From assembly GCF_003790525.1 (NCBI RefSeq), contig NZ_CP033634.1: a DNA stretch of 64,000 nucleotides; one strand, written 5' to 3'. The notes under the pieces were generated by a model, which saw nothing but the letters and a program-made list of their open reading frames with translations, was not told where the DNA came from and ran no database searches. Positions 57,382-62,791 of this stretch are shown here, piece by piece. Position 1 is the first letter of the stretch. The number at the start of each line of letters is the position of its first letter. The position numbers and the translations under genes are program-made. The stretch comes from Escherichia coli. Lineage in GTDB: Bacteria; Pseudomonadota; Gammaproteobacteria; Enterobacterales; Enterobacteriaceae.

Positions 57382-58096
57382 TACGGCAATAATATTCGGC
57401 GGCCTGTTTTTTTCCTGCAGCGTGATGGCCGCAAACGGTACGCTGGCCCCCACTGTGGTGCCAATGGTGAACGGTGGTCAGGCCAGTATTGCCATCAGCA
57501 ATACCAGCCCGAATCTGTTTACCGTTCCCGGTGACCGGATTATCGCCGTGAACAGTCTGGATGGTGCCCTGACCAATAATGAGCAGACCTCCTCCGGCGG
57601 TGTGGTGGTGGCCACCGTCAACAAAAAGCCCTTTACGTTCATTCTGGAAACAGAACGTGGTCTGAATCTTTCCATTCAGGCCGTTCCCCGTGAAGGCGCG
57701 GGGCGTACCATTCAGCTGGTCAGTGACCTGCGCGGAACCGGAGAAGAAGCCGGTGCGTGGGAAACGTCCACGCCTTACGAATCCCTGCTTGTGACCATCA
57801 GCCAGGCTGTCCGTGGCGGAAAATTACCTGCAGGCTGGTATCAGGTTCCTGTGACAAAGGAAACCCTGCAGGCCCCGGCGGGGCTGTCTTCAGTGGCAGA
57901 TGCCGTATGGACGGGGAATCACCTGAAGATGGTCCGCTTTACCGTGGAAAATAAAACGCTGTCTGCCCTGAATATCCGGGAAAGTGATTTCTGGCAGCCG
58001 GGAACCCGTGCCGTGATGTTCAGCCAGCCTGCCAGCCAGTTACTGGCAGGTGCGCGCATGGATGTGTATGTCATCCGTGACGGGGAGGGCAACTGA
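57368..58096 (+). CDS. traK: TraK
   Basis: 242-aa product with signal peptide; overlaps traE and traB as in F. Confidence 0.9.
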
Positions 58097-59523
58097 TGGC
58101 CAGTATCAACACCATTGTGAAACGCAAGCAGTACCTGTGGCTGGGGATTGTGGTTGTCGGTGCAGCCTCCGCGATTGGTGGGGCACTGTATCTGTCTGAT
58201 GTGGACATGTCCGGTAACGGTGAGGCGGTGGCTGAACAGGAGCCTGTACCGGATATGACCGGTGTGGTGGATACGACCTTTGATGACAAGGTGCGTCAGC
58301 ATGCCACCACAGAGATGCAGGTGACGGCAGCGCAGATGCAGAAGCAGTATGAGGAAATCCGTCGTGAGCTGGATGTCCTGAACAAACAGCGCGGTGATGA
58401 CCAGCGTCGTATTGAAAAGCTGGGACAGGATAATGCTGCCCTGGCAGAGCAGGTAAAAGCCCTGGGTGCAAATCCCGTCACCGCGACCGGTGAGCCAGTA
58501 CCGCAGACGCCAGCCTCACCGCCCGGCCCGGAAGGCGAACCACAGCCAGGAAACACACCCGTATCTTTCCCGCCGCAGGGCAGCGTTGCTGTTCCACCGC
58601 CGACGGCGTTTTATCCCGGGAATGGTGTCACGCCACCACCACAGGTGACGTACCAGTCTGTGCCGGTGCCTAACCGGATACAGCGTAAGGTGTTTACCCG
58701 TAATGAGGGAAAACAGGGACCATCACTGCCGTACATTCCGTCAGGAAGTTTTGCGAAAGCCATGCTGATTGAAGGGGCGGATGCCAATGCCTCTGTCACC
58801 GGTAATGAATCCACGGTGCCGATGCAGCTGCGTATCACCGGCCTGGTGGAAATGCCGAACAGCAAGACGTATGACGCAACGGGATGTTTTGTGGGTCTGG
58901 AAGCCTGGGGGGATGTGTCCAGTGAGCGTGCCATTGTACGCACCCGCAATATCAGCTGCCTGAAGGACGGCAAAACTATTGATATGCCGATTAAGGGGCA
59001 TGTCAGCTTCCGGGGTAAAAACGGTATCAAGGGCGAAGTGGTGATGCGTAACGGCAAAATCCTCGGCTGGGCATGGGGCGCGGGATTTGTTGACGGTATC
59101 GGTCAGGGAATGGAGCGTGCCTCCCAGCCGGCTGTCGGGCTGGGTGCCACCGCTGCTTACGGGGCCGGCGATGTCCTTAAAATGGGTATCGGTGGCGGCG
59201 CATCGAAAGCCGCACAGACGCTCAGTGACTACTACATCAAACGTGCCGAACAGTATCACCCGGTGATACCGATTGGTGCGGGCAACGAAGTGACCGTGGT
59301 GTTCCAGGACGGCTTCCAGCTGAAAACCGTGGAAGAGATGGCGCTGGAACGCACGCAGAGCAGAGCTGAAGAAGACAATCCGGAAAGTCCGGTTCCTGTT
59401 CCGCCATCGGCTGAAAGTCATCTTAACGGCTTTAATACTGACCAGATGCTGAAGCAGCTGGGCAACCTGAATCCGCAGCAGTTTATGTCCGGCAGCCAGG
59501 GAGGGGGCAACGATGGCAAATAA
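58096..59523 (+). CDS. traB: TraB
   Basis: 475-aa product with N-terminal transmembrane helix, coiled coil and Pro-rich linker. Confidence 0.9.
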   Translation: MASINTIVKRKQYLWLGIVVVGAASAIGGALYLSDVDMSGNGEAVAEQEPVPDMTGVVDTTFDDKVRQHATTEMQVTAAQMQKQYEEIRRELDVLNKQRGDDQRRIEKLGQDNAALAEQVKALGANPVTATGEPVPQTPASPPGPEGEPQPGNTPVSFPPQGSVAVPPPTAFYPGNGVTPPPQVTYQSVPVPNRIQRKVFTRNEGKQGPSLPYIPSGSFAKAMLIEGADANASVTGNESTVPMQLRITGLVEMPNSKTYDATGCFVGLEAWGDVSSERAIVRTRNISCLKDGKTIDMPIKGHVSFRGKNGIKGEVVMRNGKILGWAWGAGFVDGIGQGMERASQPAVGLGATAAYGAGDVLKMGIGGGASKAAQTLSDYYIKRAEQYHPVIPIGAGNEVTVVFQDGFQLKTVEEMALERTQSRAEEDNPESPVPVPPSAESHLNGFNTDQMLKQLGNLNPQQFMSGSQGGGNDGK

Positions 59524-60097
59524 TATGTCACTCCGTCAGATATGCCATGCCACCCGGTATGTTGTTGTCCGGGGCCTGTGTTGGTTGTTCTGGTGTCTGA
59601 AATACGCCGTCATTCTGCCACTGGCCACAATGGCCCTGATGGCTCTGTTTGTTTTATGGAAGGACAACACCACACCGGGAAAATTACTGGTTCAGGAAAT
59701 TGACTTCGTAAGACAAACAGCCCCTGCCGGGCAGTTTCCTGTAAGAGAATGTTTGCCTTCTCTGCATGATCTTCCAGGAGCAGAAGAGAAAATCTGCCGT
59801 TACCGTGCTGCTGATGCTGCAGATTATGTCAGGGAGACTGACCGGTCACTGATGCAACTGGTCACCGCATTCTGGGCAACGCTGGCACTTATGTATATGT
59901 CGTTTGCGGCAGGCACCGGGAAATATCCGGTGCTGCCCGGAAAAATGAAATGTGTCCGTGTGGCAACAGCAGATGAGCGTCTGAAGGAAGTTCTTGCAGA
60001 AGACACTTCCCTGCCGGGAAAAATCAGGGAATGCCATGTTTATTTCCCTGATGACAGAACAATCAGAAACAACGGAGATAAAAATGAACATGCGTAA
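59513..60097 (+). CDS. traP: TraP
   Basis: 194-aa membrane protein following traB. Confidence 0.85.
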   Translation: MANNMSLRQICHATRYVVVRGLCWLFWCLKYAVILPLATMALMALFVLWKDNTTPGKLLVQEIDFVRQTAPAGQFPVRECLPSLHDLPGAEEKICRYRAADAADYVRETDRSLMQLVTAFWATLALMYMSFAAGTGKYPVLPGKMKCVRVATADERLKEVLAEDTSLPGKIRECHVYFPDDRTIRNNGDKNEHA

Positions 60098-60404
60098 TAT
60101 TAATGTTATTACTGCCCGCTCTGTACCGGATAAAAGCGTATCAGATGATTTTATGCATGCTGTTCTCAGTAACTGCACCACAAGAATCGTACTTCCTGCA
60201 CCGAAGGAATTCAGTTCTGAATCATTGCCGCACAATTTTAATATGGCTGCTGTCGGTGTGATGAAGAAGGGTATGTCGATGAGCTTATTTTCTTCTCCGG
60301 GGCATATTGTGGTTGCCGGACAATCCGGTGGCGGAAAATCTGTTCCGGTGAAAGAACTAATCGACAGAATTATTCAGAAATATAAGGAACCCTTCGATGA
60401 ATAA
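60084..60404 (+). CDS. trbD: Putative TrbD-like protein (start uncertain)
   Basis: ORF between traP and trbG; ATG at 60084 preceded by ACGGAG; assignment by position only. Confidence 0.45.
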   Translation: MNMRNINVITARSVPDKSVSDDFMHAVLSNCTTRIVLPAPKEFSSESLPHNFNMAAVGVMKKGMSMSLFSSPGHIVVAGQSGGGKSVPVKELIDRIIQKYKEPFDE

Positions 60405-60648
60405 GCTGGTTTCTGATGGCAGCGTCAAAAAAATAAATTATCCGGTGCTGTATGAATCCGGAATAACACCTCCGTTATGTGAAGTCAGTGCGCCAGAACC
60501 TGATGCGGGGGGGAAACGCATTGTGGCATATGTTTATAAATCATCACGGAATACGGTTTTTGAAAATCCTGACATTGTAAAAACCTGTACGGTCAGGGAT
60601 TTGAAGAATGATTTTGTGAACTGCGATGAGAAAGGTGAGGGACAATGA
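60397..60648 (+). CDS. trbG: TrbG
   Basis: 83-aa product MNKLVSDGSVKKINYPVLYESG... Confidence 0.8.
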   Translation: MNKLVSDGSVKKINYPVLYESGITPPLCEVSAPEPDAGGKRIVAYVYKSSRNTVFENPDIVKTCTVRDLKNDFVNCDEKGEGQ

Positions 60649-61160
60649 AACAGATTTCTTTATTTATTCCTCTGCTGGGGACCTTATTACTTTCCGGCTG
60701 TGCCGGAACCAGTACGGAATTTGAGTGTAACGCCACCACATCCGATACCTGTATGACGATGGAGCAGGCCAATGAGAAGGCCAAAAAACTGGAGCAGTCC
60801 TCAGAAGCAAAGCCGGTTGCGGCATCACTGCCGCGCCTGGCTGAAGGGAACTTCCGGACAATGCCGGTGCAGACCATTACCGCGACCACTCCGTCCGGCA
60901 GCAGACCTGCGGTGACAGCACATCCGGAGCAGAAACTGCTGGCACCACGCCCGCTGTTTACCGCTGCCCGGGAAGTGAAAACGGTTGTTCCGGTCAGTTC
61001 AGTTACGCCGGTAACACCTCCTCGTCCGCTAAGAACGGGTGAGCAGACGGCAGCATTATGGATAGCGCCTTATATTGATAACCAGGATGTTTATCATCAG
61101 CCATCCAGCGTGTTTTTTGTTATTAAACCGTCTGCGTGGGGAAAGCCACGTATTAATTAA
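60645..61160 (+). CDS. traV: TraV outer-membrane lipoprotein
   Basis: MKQISLFIPLLGTLLLSGCAGTSTEFECNATTSDTCMTMEQANEKA... (lipobox LLSGC). Confidence 0.9.
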   Translation: MKQISLFIPLLGTLLLSGCAGTSTEFECNATTSDTCMTMEQANEKAKKLEQSSEAKPVAASLPRLAEGNFRTMPVQTITATTPSGSRPAVTAHPEQKLLAPRPLFTAAREVKTVVPVSSVTPVTPPRPLRTGEQTAALWIAPYIDNQDVYHQPSSVFFVIKPSAWGKPRIN

Positions 61161-61294
61161 CTGGCCCTGAAGTTGTATATCAGCCGGCAATGTCGGCGGG
61201 CTTTCTGTATTCAAAATCTGCCTGTAAAACGAGTGCCCTGTGCGTGAAAAGGGATGGGCGGTAGCGTGTCAGAACATGTCGGGAGGAATATTCC

Positions 61295-61516
61295 GTGAGT
61301 GATGAAGCCGATGAAGCATATTCAGTGACAGAACAACTGACCATGACAGGAATAAACCTGATACGCCAGAAAATAAATGCTCATGGTATTCCTGTTTATC
61401 TCTGTGAAGCATGCGGAAATCCTATTCCGGAAGCCCGGCGGAAAATATTTCCCGGTGTGACGTTGTGCGTTGAATGTCAGGCGTATCAGGAAAGGCAGAG
61501 GAAACACTATGCATAA
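61295..61516 (+). CDS. traR: TraR (DksA-like zinc-finger protein; GTG start)
   Basis: MSDEADEAYSVTEQLTMTGINLIRQKINAHGIPVYLCEACGNPIPEARRKIFPGVTLCVECQAYQERQRKHYA. Confidence 0.9.
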   Translation: MSDEADEAYSVTEQLTMTGINLIRQKINAHGIPVYLCEACGNPIPEARRKIFPGVTLCVECQAYQERQRKHYA

Positions 61517-61982
61517 ATCAGAAGCTGAAAAAATAGATTCTATTCTGGATGAACATCAACAGATATATCGCAGACATAACCGAATAGATAACATCCTGGC
61601 GTTTTGTGCGTGTATTGCATGGGTTCCCTGTATTATTGCTGCGTTCGGCGTTGATGGTATATATCTGAAAATACTGTTTGCGGTCCTTGCCTGCTGTGGT
61701 GCGGTATGCTTTTTTATTTTCTTCTTCACCCTCCTGCCGGAATCACTCATGGTCCTCAGCCGTCAGAGCCTGCTTCAGCTTATGCGTCTGACTGAAGACG
61801 TACCGGATGCGAGACAGGAACTGCTTAACCGTCTGCTGTCCGGTAAAAAACTGACTGGTCGGGATGAACAGGATATCCGGCGTCTCTGGCAGGAGAAAGT
61901 GGATGCAATGCAGGAGTCTGCCACCCGTCAGCGTGAACAGGATACTATTCGGAAGTTTACTGAAGGGAATAAATCCGAATGA
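61509..61982 (+). CDS. Hypothetical membrane protein between traR and traC
   Basis: 157 aa from an ATG overlapping the traR stop; central hydrophobic segments. Confidence 0.5.
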   Translation: MHKSEAEKIDSILDEHQQIYRRHNRIDNILAFCACIAWVPCIIAAFGVDGIYLKILFAVLACCGAVCFFIFFFTLLPESLMVLSRQSLLQLMRLTEDVPDARQELLNRLLSGKKLTGRDEQDIRRLWQEKVDAMQESATRQREQDTIRKFTEGNKSE

Positions 61983-62030
61983 GAATCTGCAGTGTTTTAT
62001 GACCTCATAAGTTAACTGAAGGGATATTCA

Positions 62031-62276
62031 GTGATTAATATACAAGCGGAGATAATAAAGAATGCATACCTTTATTTTTCTTGTGCTGATAAAAATATTA
62101 ACGGTGGCGGAAGCTGGAATATTACACCCATGCCAAATACGGACGTATGCGTGCAGGTTCTTCGGACAATCGAGTCACACGGAGGCAGGGGATTTGGAAA
62201 TACAGGGGAATGTATTGAAGTTAAAACAAATAAACCTTTGAACAACGTGATGGATACACTGAATGGGGGGCAATGA
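62031..62276 (+). CDS. Hypothetical small protein (GTG start)
   Basis: 81-aa ORF; weak support. Confidence 0.35.
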   Translation: MINIQAEIIKNAYLYFSCADKNINGGGSWNITPMPNTDVCVQVLRTIESHGGRGFGNTGECIEVKTNKPLNNVMDTLNGGQ

Positions 62277-62303
62277 GTGCTTACTGCTTCAAAGGAAAAT
62301 GAA

Positions 62304-62666
62304 ATGAAGTCGATATATTTAGAATCTGTTCTGGCTTTTATATTTGTTGGCGTTATGGCTATGTTGATATGTGGTCTTTTTTACAATGACTACCTTGAGC
62401 AACAACCTGCAACACCAGAACAACTGAGAGAGATTACACAGGATATCCCCTGTGCAGCAGAAGCATTTAAGGAAGCTATTAAGTCTGACACATCTGATTA
62501 TCAGCCTGAACCTTTAAGTCTTGGTAAGGCAAAAGAGCTTGCATCAGCGTGTAGAGAAAGAAACGAAATGGCAGAGGTGAAACGGGTAAGAGAAAATGAG
62601 CGCAATAAGATTCGCGAAAAACAAATTCAGGCATTAAATGATGCTCATTCAGTAAAGGAACGTTAA
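62304..62666 (+). CDS. Hypothetical protein with N-terminal transmembrane helix
   Basis: 120 aa from the ATG at 62304, with AAAGGAAA upstream. Confidence 0.45.
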   Translation: MKSIYLESVLAFIFVGVMAMLICGLFYNDYLEQQPATPEQLREITQDIPCAAEAFKEAIKSDTSDYQPEPLSLGKAKELASACRERNEMAEVKRVRENERNKIREKQIQALNDAHSVKER

Positions 62667-62791
62667 TCCTGGTTTCCTGTTAAAAGCCTCCATCTCTTAT
62701 TTGTGCTGTGGTTTCAGGAATGGCACTGCGTGATATATCCACGGCCACAGACTGATATTTTCCTTTTTTAAACGCACTAAGGAATACGCAT

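Follow-up and report, generated by a model that had tools for sequence, protein, structure and literature searches.

What fills the interval between traR and traC in an F-like transfer operon that holds more than a kilobase of sequence at this point, and what might the genes encoded there do? The question is raised by a stretch of 64,000 nucleotides of Escherichia coli DNA (contig NZ_CP033634.1; hereafter the window), the 3' end of which is an F-like transfer operon on the + strand, as indicated by its list of open reading frames (ORFs) and by the annotation of an identical plasmid. From the end of traR at 61516 to the start of traC at 62792 there is a gap of 1275 bp, filled by three same-strand ORFs. 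A preliminary description of this DNA had recorded three ORFs over about 1.2 kb, with correct coordinates and size, and had noted that traC follows soon after traR in F, where the distance is indeed only 159 bp. The block consists of the already catalogued yfh/yfi genes of plasmid R100, and its presence is in itself an ordinary observation. As to their role, we lean towards regarding the yfi products as auxiliary, non-essential factors of the donor cell that would act at the inner membrane and be co-expressed with the transfer machinery.

The identity of the block is established by comparison with R100 (NC_002134), in which the traR-traC interval contains four ORFs of 137, 157, 72 and 115 amino acids (aa), namely YfhA, YfiA, YfiB and YfiC, all annotated as hypothetical proteins (WP_000549589, WP_000549568, WP_000556745 and WP_000836682, respectively). 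Position, order and strand are the same in both plasmids, and the window proteins are identical to those of R100 at 96.8% of residues for YfiA (across the full 157 aa), 85% for the C-terminal part of YfiB (67 aa) and 77.5% for YfiC. The name YfiB is presumed for the second ORF by its position, while the third belongs to a UniRef cluster, 100% identical to it, that is named 'YfiC protein'. R100 differs from the window in having YfhA as an extra first gene, a run of six rather than five adenines (A6 versus A5) in yfiB, and a YfiC of 115 rather than 120 aa. The earlier characterization of the interval as R100-like therefore holds for these identities but not for gene number, given the four ORFs of R100. 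YfhA, as the first ORF after R100 traR is called in the pEntH10407 paper (PMC2762410), is a paralogue of YfiA, with 62-64% identity (62% to the window protein). Since the last residues of R100 YfhA (locus L005, 7699-8112), ...TQRKHYA, are those of the TraR C-terminus, the duplicated unit was the 3' end of traR together with yfiA, and alignment with window positions 61480-61520 places the joint at a short CAGGAA match. The two copies are only 62% identical inside otherwise near-identical flanks, which suggests that the R100 pair arose through recombination between plasmids with different yfiA alleles.

The corresponding coordinates in F (NC_002483) are 73581 for the end of traR and 73741 for the start of traC. 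Homology between the window and F covers 61295-61556 at 94% identity and is then interrupted until 62776-62860 (92%), resuming 16 bp upstream of the traC ATG. The short F spacer (locus L003, 7575-7741) holds a frameshifted stub of yfiA, with residues 1-28 in one frame and residues 29-46 in another (tblastn E-values of 2.7e-11 and 6e-5), and this stub is of the P0144/P0154 allele type. Because a 46-codon remnant of yfiA is retained there, F has the derived, deleted form of the traR-traC interval.

Loss of the block is not peculiar to F. A query running from traR to traC matched 3744 plasmid records, 1173 of them over at least 80% of its length. When 60 records were taken at even steps through this ranking, 20 carried the block, in three- or four-ORF forms and in some cases with insertion sequence (IS) insertions or internal deletions; 36 had the short F-type span (exactly 582 bp in 34, and 590-591 bp in the other two), and three were of the Salmonella pSLT type. 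Among 5426 complete E. coli genomes the block is present in 854, and 1019 of its 1022 places are on plasmids. Individual carriers are variously damaged: pRHB37-C15_3 lacks the equivalent of window 61632-62516, pF11A has lost 62365-62513 within yfiC, pCP55 has a frameshift at codon 23 of yfiB, yfiA of pSCU-124-2 is not annotated and matches only from codon 7, and p666 of H10407 carries an IS66-family insertion after a truncated copy. IS elements found in the interval include ISKpn26, IS1A, IS903B and members of the IS66 family (plasmid matches H146, H158 and H207; locus L008), and such insertions in several plasmids fit a permissive, non-essential site. The block is plainly dispensable, to judge from its deletion in F and most F-like plasmids and from the independent deletions and frameshifts in other lineages.

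Dispensability is nonetheless accompanied by signs of coding function. The preliminary description had named conservation and coding signal in related plasmids as the point to be checked, and the ORFs are conserved in about 1200 plasmid records, with ratios of nonsynonymous to synonymous substitution rates (dN/dS) below 1. The three families are narrow: grouping at 90% identity yields 78, 147 and 93 clusters. When the yfiA profile was run with HMMER against the full set of 1.8 billion representative proteins, 98 clusters came back, all of one narrow family. As far as these searches reach, the families occur only in F-like plasmids from Enterobacteriaceae and show coding constraint.

The block also appears to be modular, in that traR and yfiA travel together, as do yfiB and yfiC. 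In pSLT-type plasmids of Salmonella, traR is followed by a yfiA homologue (50% identity), yfiB and yfiC are absent, and there is an unrelated 87-aa membrane ORF. In the F-like Klebsiella plasmid pEGKP6.2, seven small ORFs, most of them for membrane proteins, lie between traV and traC (locus L007, 2330-4747); they include homologues of yfiB (56-72% identity) and of yfiC (37-41%), and neither traR nor yfiA is annotated. Neither these Klebsiella ORFs nor the distant yfiA homologues match a Pfam family. The first pEGKP6.2 ORF, similar to yfiA in size and topology, was considered as a relative but is unrelated (hhalign probability 1.3%); a motif of 45 residues, 40% identical, is common to two others, o2 and o5. 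A yfiA-like gene directly after traR was also found by profile search in two divergent F-type operons, in one of which (L015) it overlaps traR and precedes traC; the other (L018) ends before traC would appear.

YfiA itself is predicted to be an inner-membrane protein. Hydropathy and alignment delimit a single long hydrophobic stretch at about residues 25-84, which corresponds to a two-helix hairpin with a loop of a few residues. Alignment of 24 diverse members shows conservation at the N-terminus (MHKSxAEKIDxILDEH) and through the final 75 residues (LSRQ..LMRLTED.PD.RQELLNRLLSGKKLTGRDE..IR.LW...ATRQREQD.IRKF), and the hairpin occurs as several unrelated cassettes. The window protein has this architecture, its hairpin being flanked by MHKS..DEH and by the C-terminal motif LSRQ..RLLSGK.LTGRDE..LW, and its gene, which lies upstream of traC, begins inside traR or where traR ends, an arrangement shared by R100, the pSLT type, L015 and L018. 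A comparison of the two main allele classes of E. coli gives a dN/dS of about 0.4 in the N-terminal region, 1.1-1.2 in the hairpin and 0.3-0.45 in the C-terminal region. Because the hairpin is near neutral and the parts on either side are constrained, we infer that the membrane part behaves as an anchor and that the constrained parts are cytoplasmic, the orientation being deduced from the positive charges ahead of helix 1.

The middle gene is broken in this plasmid lineage. Intact yfiB relatives (R100, QML p1, pF11A and Klebsiella) begin with MHTFIFLVLIK-NINGGGSW at an ATG equivalent to window position 62062. Where they have six adenines, alignment shows that the window has five, and this single-nucleotide deletion places the conserved start and the body of the gene in different frames, the body lying in the -1 frame. 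The intact frame of 71-73 aa, from MHTFIFLVL... to ...LNGG(G)Q, is accordingly split, and the part that remains is 85-91% identical to R100 and QML p1 over 67-68 aa. RefSeq likewise flags the corresponding locus of an identical plasmid (pGZM7d, QYN11_RS25430, equal to window 62062-62276) as a 'frameshifted' pseudogene. The second ORF of the preliminary description is an 81-aa frame that starts at an upstream GTG which happens to lie open in the body frame; its N-terminus is unrelated to that of YfiB, it is annotated as a coding sequence only in the non-RefSeq records AP026457 and LC744485, and in A6 plasmids, from alignment rows read by eye, the same frame meets a stop after about 23 codons.

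Is the shortened adenine run more than a sequencing error? In the plasmid collection, exact matches to a 98-mer with A5 were found in 74 records and to the 99-mer with A6 in 840. The A5 form occurs on at least three haplotype backgrounds, namely the window type, a pGUE-NDM group four substitutions away and an R100-like type 49 substitutions away, and its carriers include the NDM-carrying plasmids pGUE-NDM and pNDM-d2e9 (loci L020-L024). As it is found on at least three backgrounds, A5 is evidently the product of recurrent slippage or of spread by recombination, not of a single sequencing error, and the run has the look of a mutational hot spot. Programmed -1 frameshifting at A AAA A could formally restore YfiB, as a slip at the Lys codon gives the exact R100 sequence; it was dropped as the default because A6 predominates among the records and a stimulatory structure is absent.

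For YfiB, dN/dS is 0.15-0.34 among intact relatives, the Klebsiella homologue included. The restored protein has no 19-residue hydrophobic segment by hydropathy, and an AlphaFold2 (AF2) model gives it a small beta-beta-alpha-beta-alpha domain with a predicted local distance difference test (pLDDT) score of 78.8. The hydrophobic N-terminus was considered as a signal peptide and set aside because the model has residues 2-13 as a confident core beta-strand, though some uncertainty on this point remains. In the AF2 model of YfiC (pLDDT 82.9), a membrane helix at the N-terminus is followed by two short helices and a charged C-terminal helix of 47 residues. Alignment and hydropathy confirm the N-terminal membrane helix and the PCAAEAF and C83 motifs in the window protein. 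Cysteines C50 and C83 are invariant from E. coli to the Klebsiella homologue and presumably form a disulfide in a periplasm-facing domain. The 120-aa and 115-aa alleles of yfiC are separated by an in-frame indel of 15 nt, which constitutes a five-codon insertion in the window. Two of the proteins thus have transmembrane segments (the YfiA hairpin and the single YfiC helix), not one as the preliminary description had it.

The arrangement of the locus (Table 1) bears on how these genes would be expressed. The ATG of yfiA, as read from the sequence, overlaps the traR stop by 8 nt and lies in the last traR codons (ATGCATAA, 61509-61516), and an AGGA stands seven bases 5' of the yfiC ATG. In a scan of 60600-63000, no promoter-like site was found, and the only two terminator-like hairpins, one in traV and one antisense in ORF3, are weak and at or below the level of shuffled sequence. 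Given the lack of a promoter of its own and of a convincing terminator, together with the 8-nt overlap, the simplest reading is that the block belongs to the long tra transcript and that translation of yfiA is coupled to that of traR. An Rfam scan of the interval gave no match, and a repeat search of it returned nothing notable. Within traR there is an imperfect inverted repeat of 27 nt (61357-61383 and 61464-61490, 78% complementary, arms 80 nt apart) that is probably due to chance.

Table 1. Features at the 3' end of the window, in order along the + strand
Feature	Position	Strand	Basis or remark
traB	58096-59523	+	
traP	59513-60097	+	
trbD	about 60084-60404	+	
trbG	60397-60648	+	
traV	60645-61160	+	Pfam match too
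traR, 73 aa, upstream anchor	61295-61516	+	Pfam PF01258 zf-dskA_traR, E 1.8e-13; traR in pGZM7d annotation
ORF1, yfiA, 157 aa	61509-61982	+	96.8% identity to second R100 ORF; labelled yfiA in AP026457
Alternative 81-aa GTG-started ORF, product of the frameshift	62031-62276	+	ORF list
ORF2, yfiB-type, frameshifted pseudogene	62062-62276 (conserved register)	+	R100/QML p1 alignment; RefSeq flag
A5 homopolymer, frameshift site	62091-62095	+	A6 in intact alleles
ORF3, yfiC, 120 aa from ATG (129 aa from GTG 62277)	62304-62666	+	UniRef name; R100 identity
traC 5' part, VirB4-type ATPase, downstream anchor	62792-64000, continues past window end	+	pGZM7d annotation

The plasmid that supplies several of these names, pGZM7d (NZ_CP129283.1; E. 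coli, chicken liver, 90 kb), is 100% identical to the window here and is of replicon type IncFIA according to MOB-suite. Beyond the point at which the window ends (locus L019, 20247-22248), it carries an unnamed 173-aa ORF between traU and trbC and, between trbC and traN, a 123-aa ORF and a protein with an HNH-endonuclease motif. With these further unnamed ORFs, the traR-traC gap becomes one of several accessory slots in the tra operon.

Direct searches for function were silent. Pfam, NCBIfam, PHROGs and PADLOC gave sub-threshold noise only for all three proteins, the PADLOC defence proteins producing zero matches, and PDB profile searches were empty or insignificant. No Tra or Trb family in Pfam or NCBIfam matched, the hits being to sub-threshold unrelated families, and TraS and TraT families gave no match in either database at E-values up to 1. 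The literature searched contained no functional study of yfiA-C, and the genes scored when F-like operons were compared were only those with F names (PMC5102898). The nearest known counterparts are the small non-essential trb genes of F (trbD, trbG, trbE, trbA, trbJ, trbH and others), which are likewise short, often membrane-associated, co-transcribed and placed among essential tra genes, and which are, like the yfi block, richer in AT than the core genes. They too are present in only part of the F-like plasmids (PMC5102898). The trb genes have no sequence relation to yfiA-C, to judge by the missing Tra/Trb Pfam matches, and some of them have phenotypes, whereas we found none reported for yfiA-C in the literature searched.

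Building on the operon context, conservation, topology and dispensability described above, we infer a link to the transfer machinery that can be outlined as follows. The yfi proteins would be made only in transfer-competent donor cells, alongside the machinery of type IV secretion and of the pilus. YfiA would be cytoplasmic, anchored by its hairpin and made in step with TraR; YfiC would cross the membrane once and expose a disulfide-bonded domain to the periplasm; and YfiB would be a small soluble alpha/beta protein near the inner membrane. Together, they may tune the assembly of the transfer apparatus, or its envelope or physiological cost, rather than DNA transfer or exclusion. Several observations weigh against this proposal. 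Frequent losses are equally consistent with genes that do nothing for transfer, and the dN/dS of yfiC among E. coli alleles, at 0.6-0.9, indicates weak constraint. The low G+C content of the yfiB-yfiC part (38-41%, versus 53-60% in traB and traC) fits acquired cargo. Lastly, one member of the yfiA family, P0337 (147 aa; loci L016/L017, 5001-5444), stands alone beside HicA/HicB toxin-antitoxin genes; the 10-kb P0337 loci that were read contain no F-type transfer genes (L017 has NikA/MobC-type and ParA-type genes), so the yfiA family is not strictly tied to tra operons.

In a different account, small membrane-protein genes collect in the interval because it is a permissive slot, and they are either decaying or of some other benefit to host or plasmid, for instance by acting against phages specific for the pilus or against competing plasmids. 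The content of the slot varies widely, from nothing in F to two ORFs in the pSLT type, three or four in the R100 type and seven in Klebsiella, with IS elements in several plasmids; losses are frequent, yfiB-yfiC is AT-rich, and elsewhere in the pGZM7d tra operon further unnamed ORFs and a gene for an HNH endonuclease have been inserted. We nevertheless consider such hitch-hiking rather unlikely, as purifying selection on yfiB is clear across genera, the pairing of traR and yfiA is conserved, no protein matches a known defence family in PADLOC, and the block is strictly fixed in position and orientation, with its E. coli occurrences lying almost entirely on plasmids.

A second alternative places YfiA in a regulatory module with TraR, which we take to be a factor acting in RNA polymerase's secondary channel. 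As a membrane-tethered partner made in fixed ratio to TraR, YfiA would modulate the action of TraR on RNA polymerase, sequestering or releasing it and in this way coupling expression of the transfer genes to the condition of the envelope. The preliminary description had suggested regulatory accessories, and the conserved translational coupling of yfiA to traR is the sole lead in that direction. The 8-nt overlap of the two genes speaks for such a partnership, and a yfiA-like gene that overlaps traR or closely adjoins it recurs in the pSLT type and in the two divergent F-type operons. None of the tra operons examined has yfiA in the absence of traR (in Klebsiella locus L007 neither is annotated), and the constrained regions are the N- and C-terminal parts, cytoplasmic by prediction, with the hairpin as a simple anchor. 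On the other hand, one family member is far from any traR, and TraR of F, which has only a yfiA stub, acts on RNA polymerase without YfiA; it is F that the TraR literature uses (PMC2613031 and the review PMC7555446). For these reasons the module appears unlikely, and its stronger version, that traR and yfiA form a two-part switch that links the inner membrane, or the building of the transfer apparatus, to the reprogramming of RNA polymerase by TraR, is more doubtful still.

Entry or surface exclusion, in which the membrane proteins would block incoming DNA of related plasmids, was the other role that had been suggested for these ORFs, and it fares considerably worse. TraS is known for its allelic diversity, which the YfiA hairpin loosely recalls in differing strongly between allele classes (dN/dS 1.1-1.2). 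However, what varies in YfiA would lie within the membrane, the loop being just a few residues long, and what is conserved would be in the cytoplasm. No similarity to TraS, TraT or any other Tra or Trb family was found, the genes lie between traR and traC instead of between traG and traD, and pGZM7d has its own gene in the traS position as well as traT, downstream of traG. Moreover, F is the model for exclusion and excludes efficiently although it lacks the yfi genes. An exclusion function is therefore very improbable. That the ORFs are merely chance open frames in a non-coding spacer, as the absence of family annotation and the high dN/dS of yfiC among close alleles might suggest, is scarcely credible and, on the conservation data, already refuted by dN/dS under 1 in yfiB and in the cytoplasmic portions of YfiA, by in-frame indels between yfiC alleles, by protein homologues at 37-72% identity in Klebsiella and Salmonella plasmids, and by confident AF2 models.

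For annotation, the consequence is that the middle ORF of this plasmid lineage should be recorded as a frameshifted pseudogene and not as an 81-aa GTG-started protein. For the biology of F-like plasmids, the consequence lies in the choice of reference. F is the reference for conjugation genetics, yet at this locus it is a deletion derivative, and work on F cannot reveal the roles of the yfi genes. If traR and yfiA did form a two-part switch, F would have lost this layer of control, which could help to explain why the role of TraR in conjugation stayed obscure in work on that plasmid. Ultimately, the coupling of traR and yfiA across divergent F-type systems offers a cheap, testable lead on what TraR may contribute to transfer.

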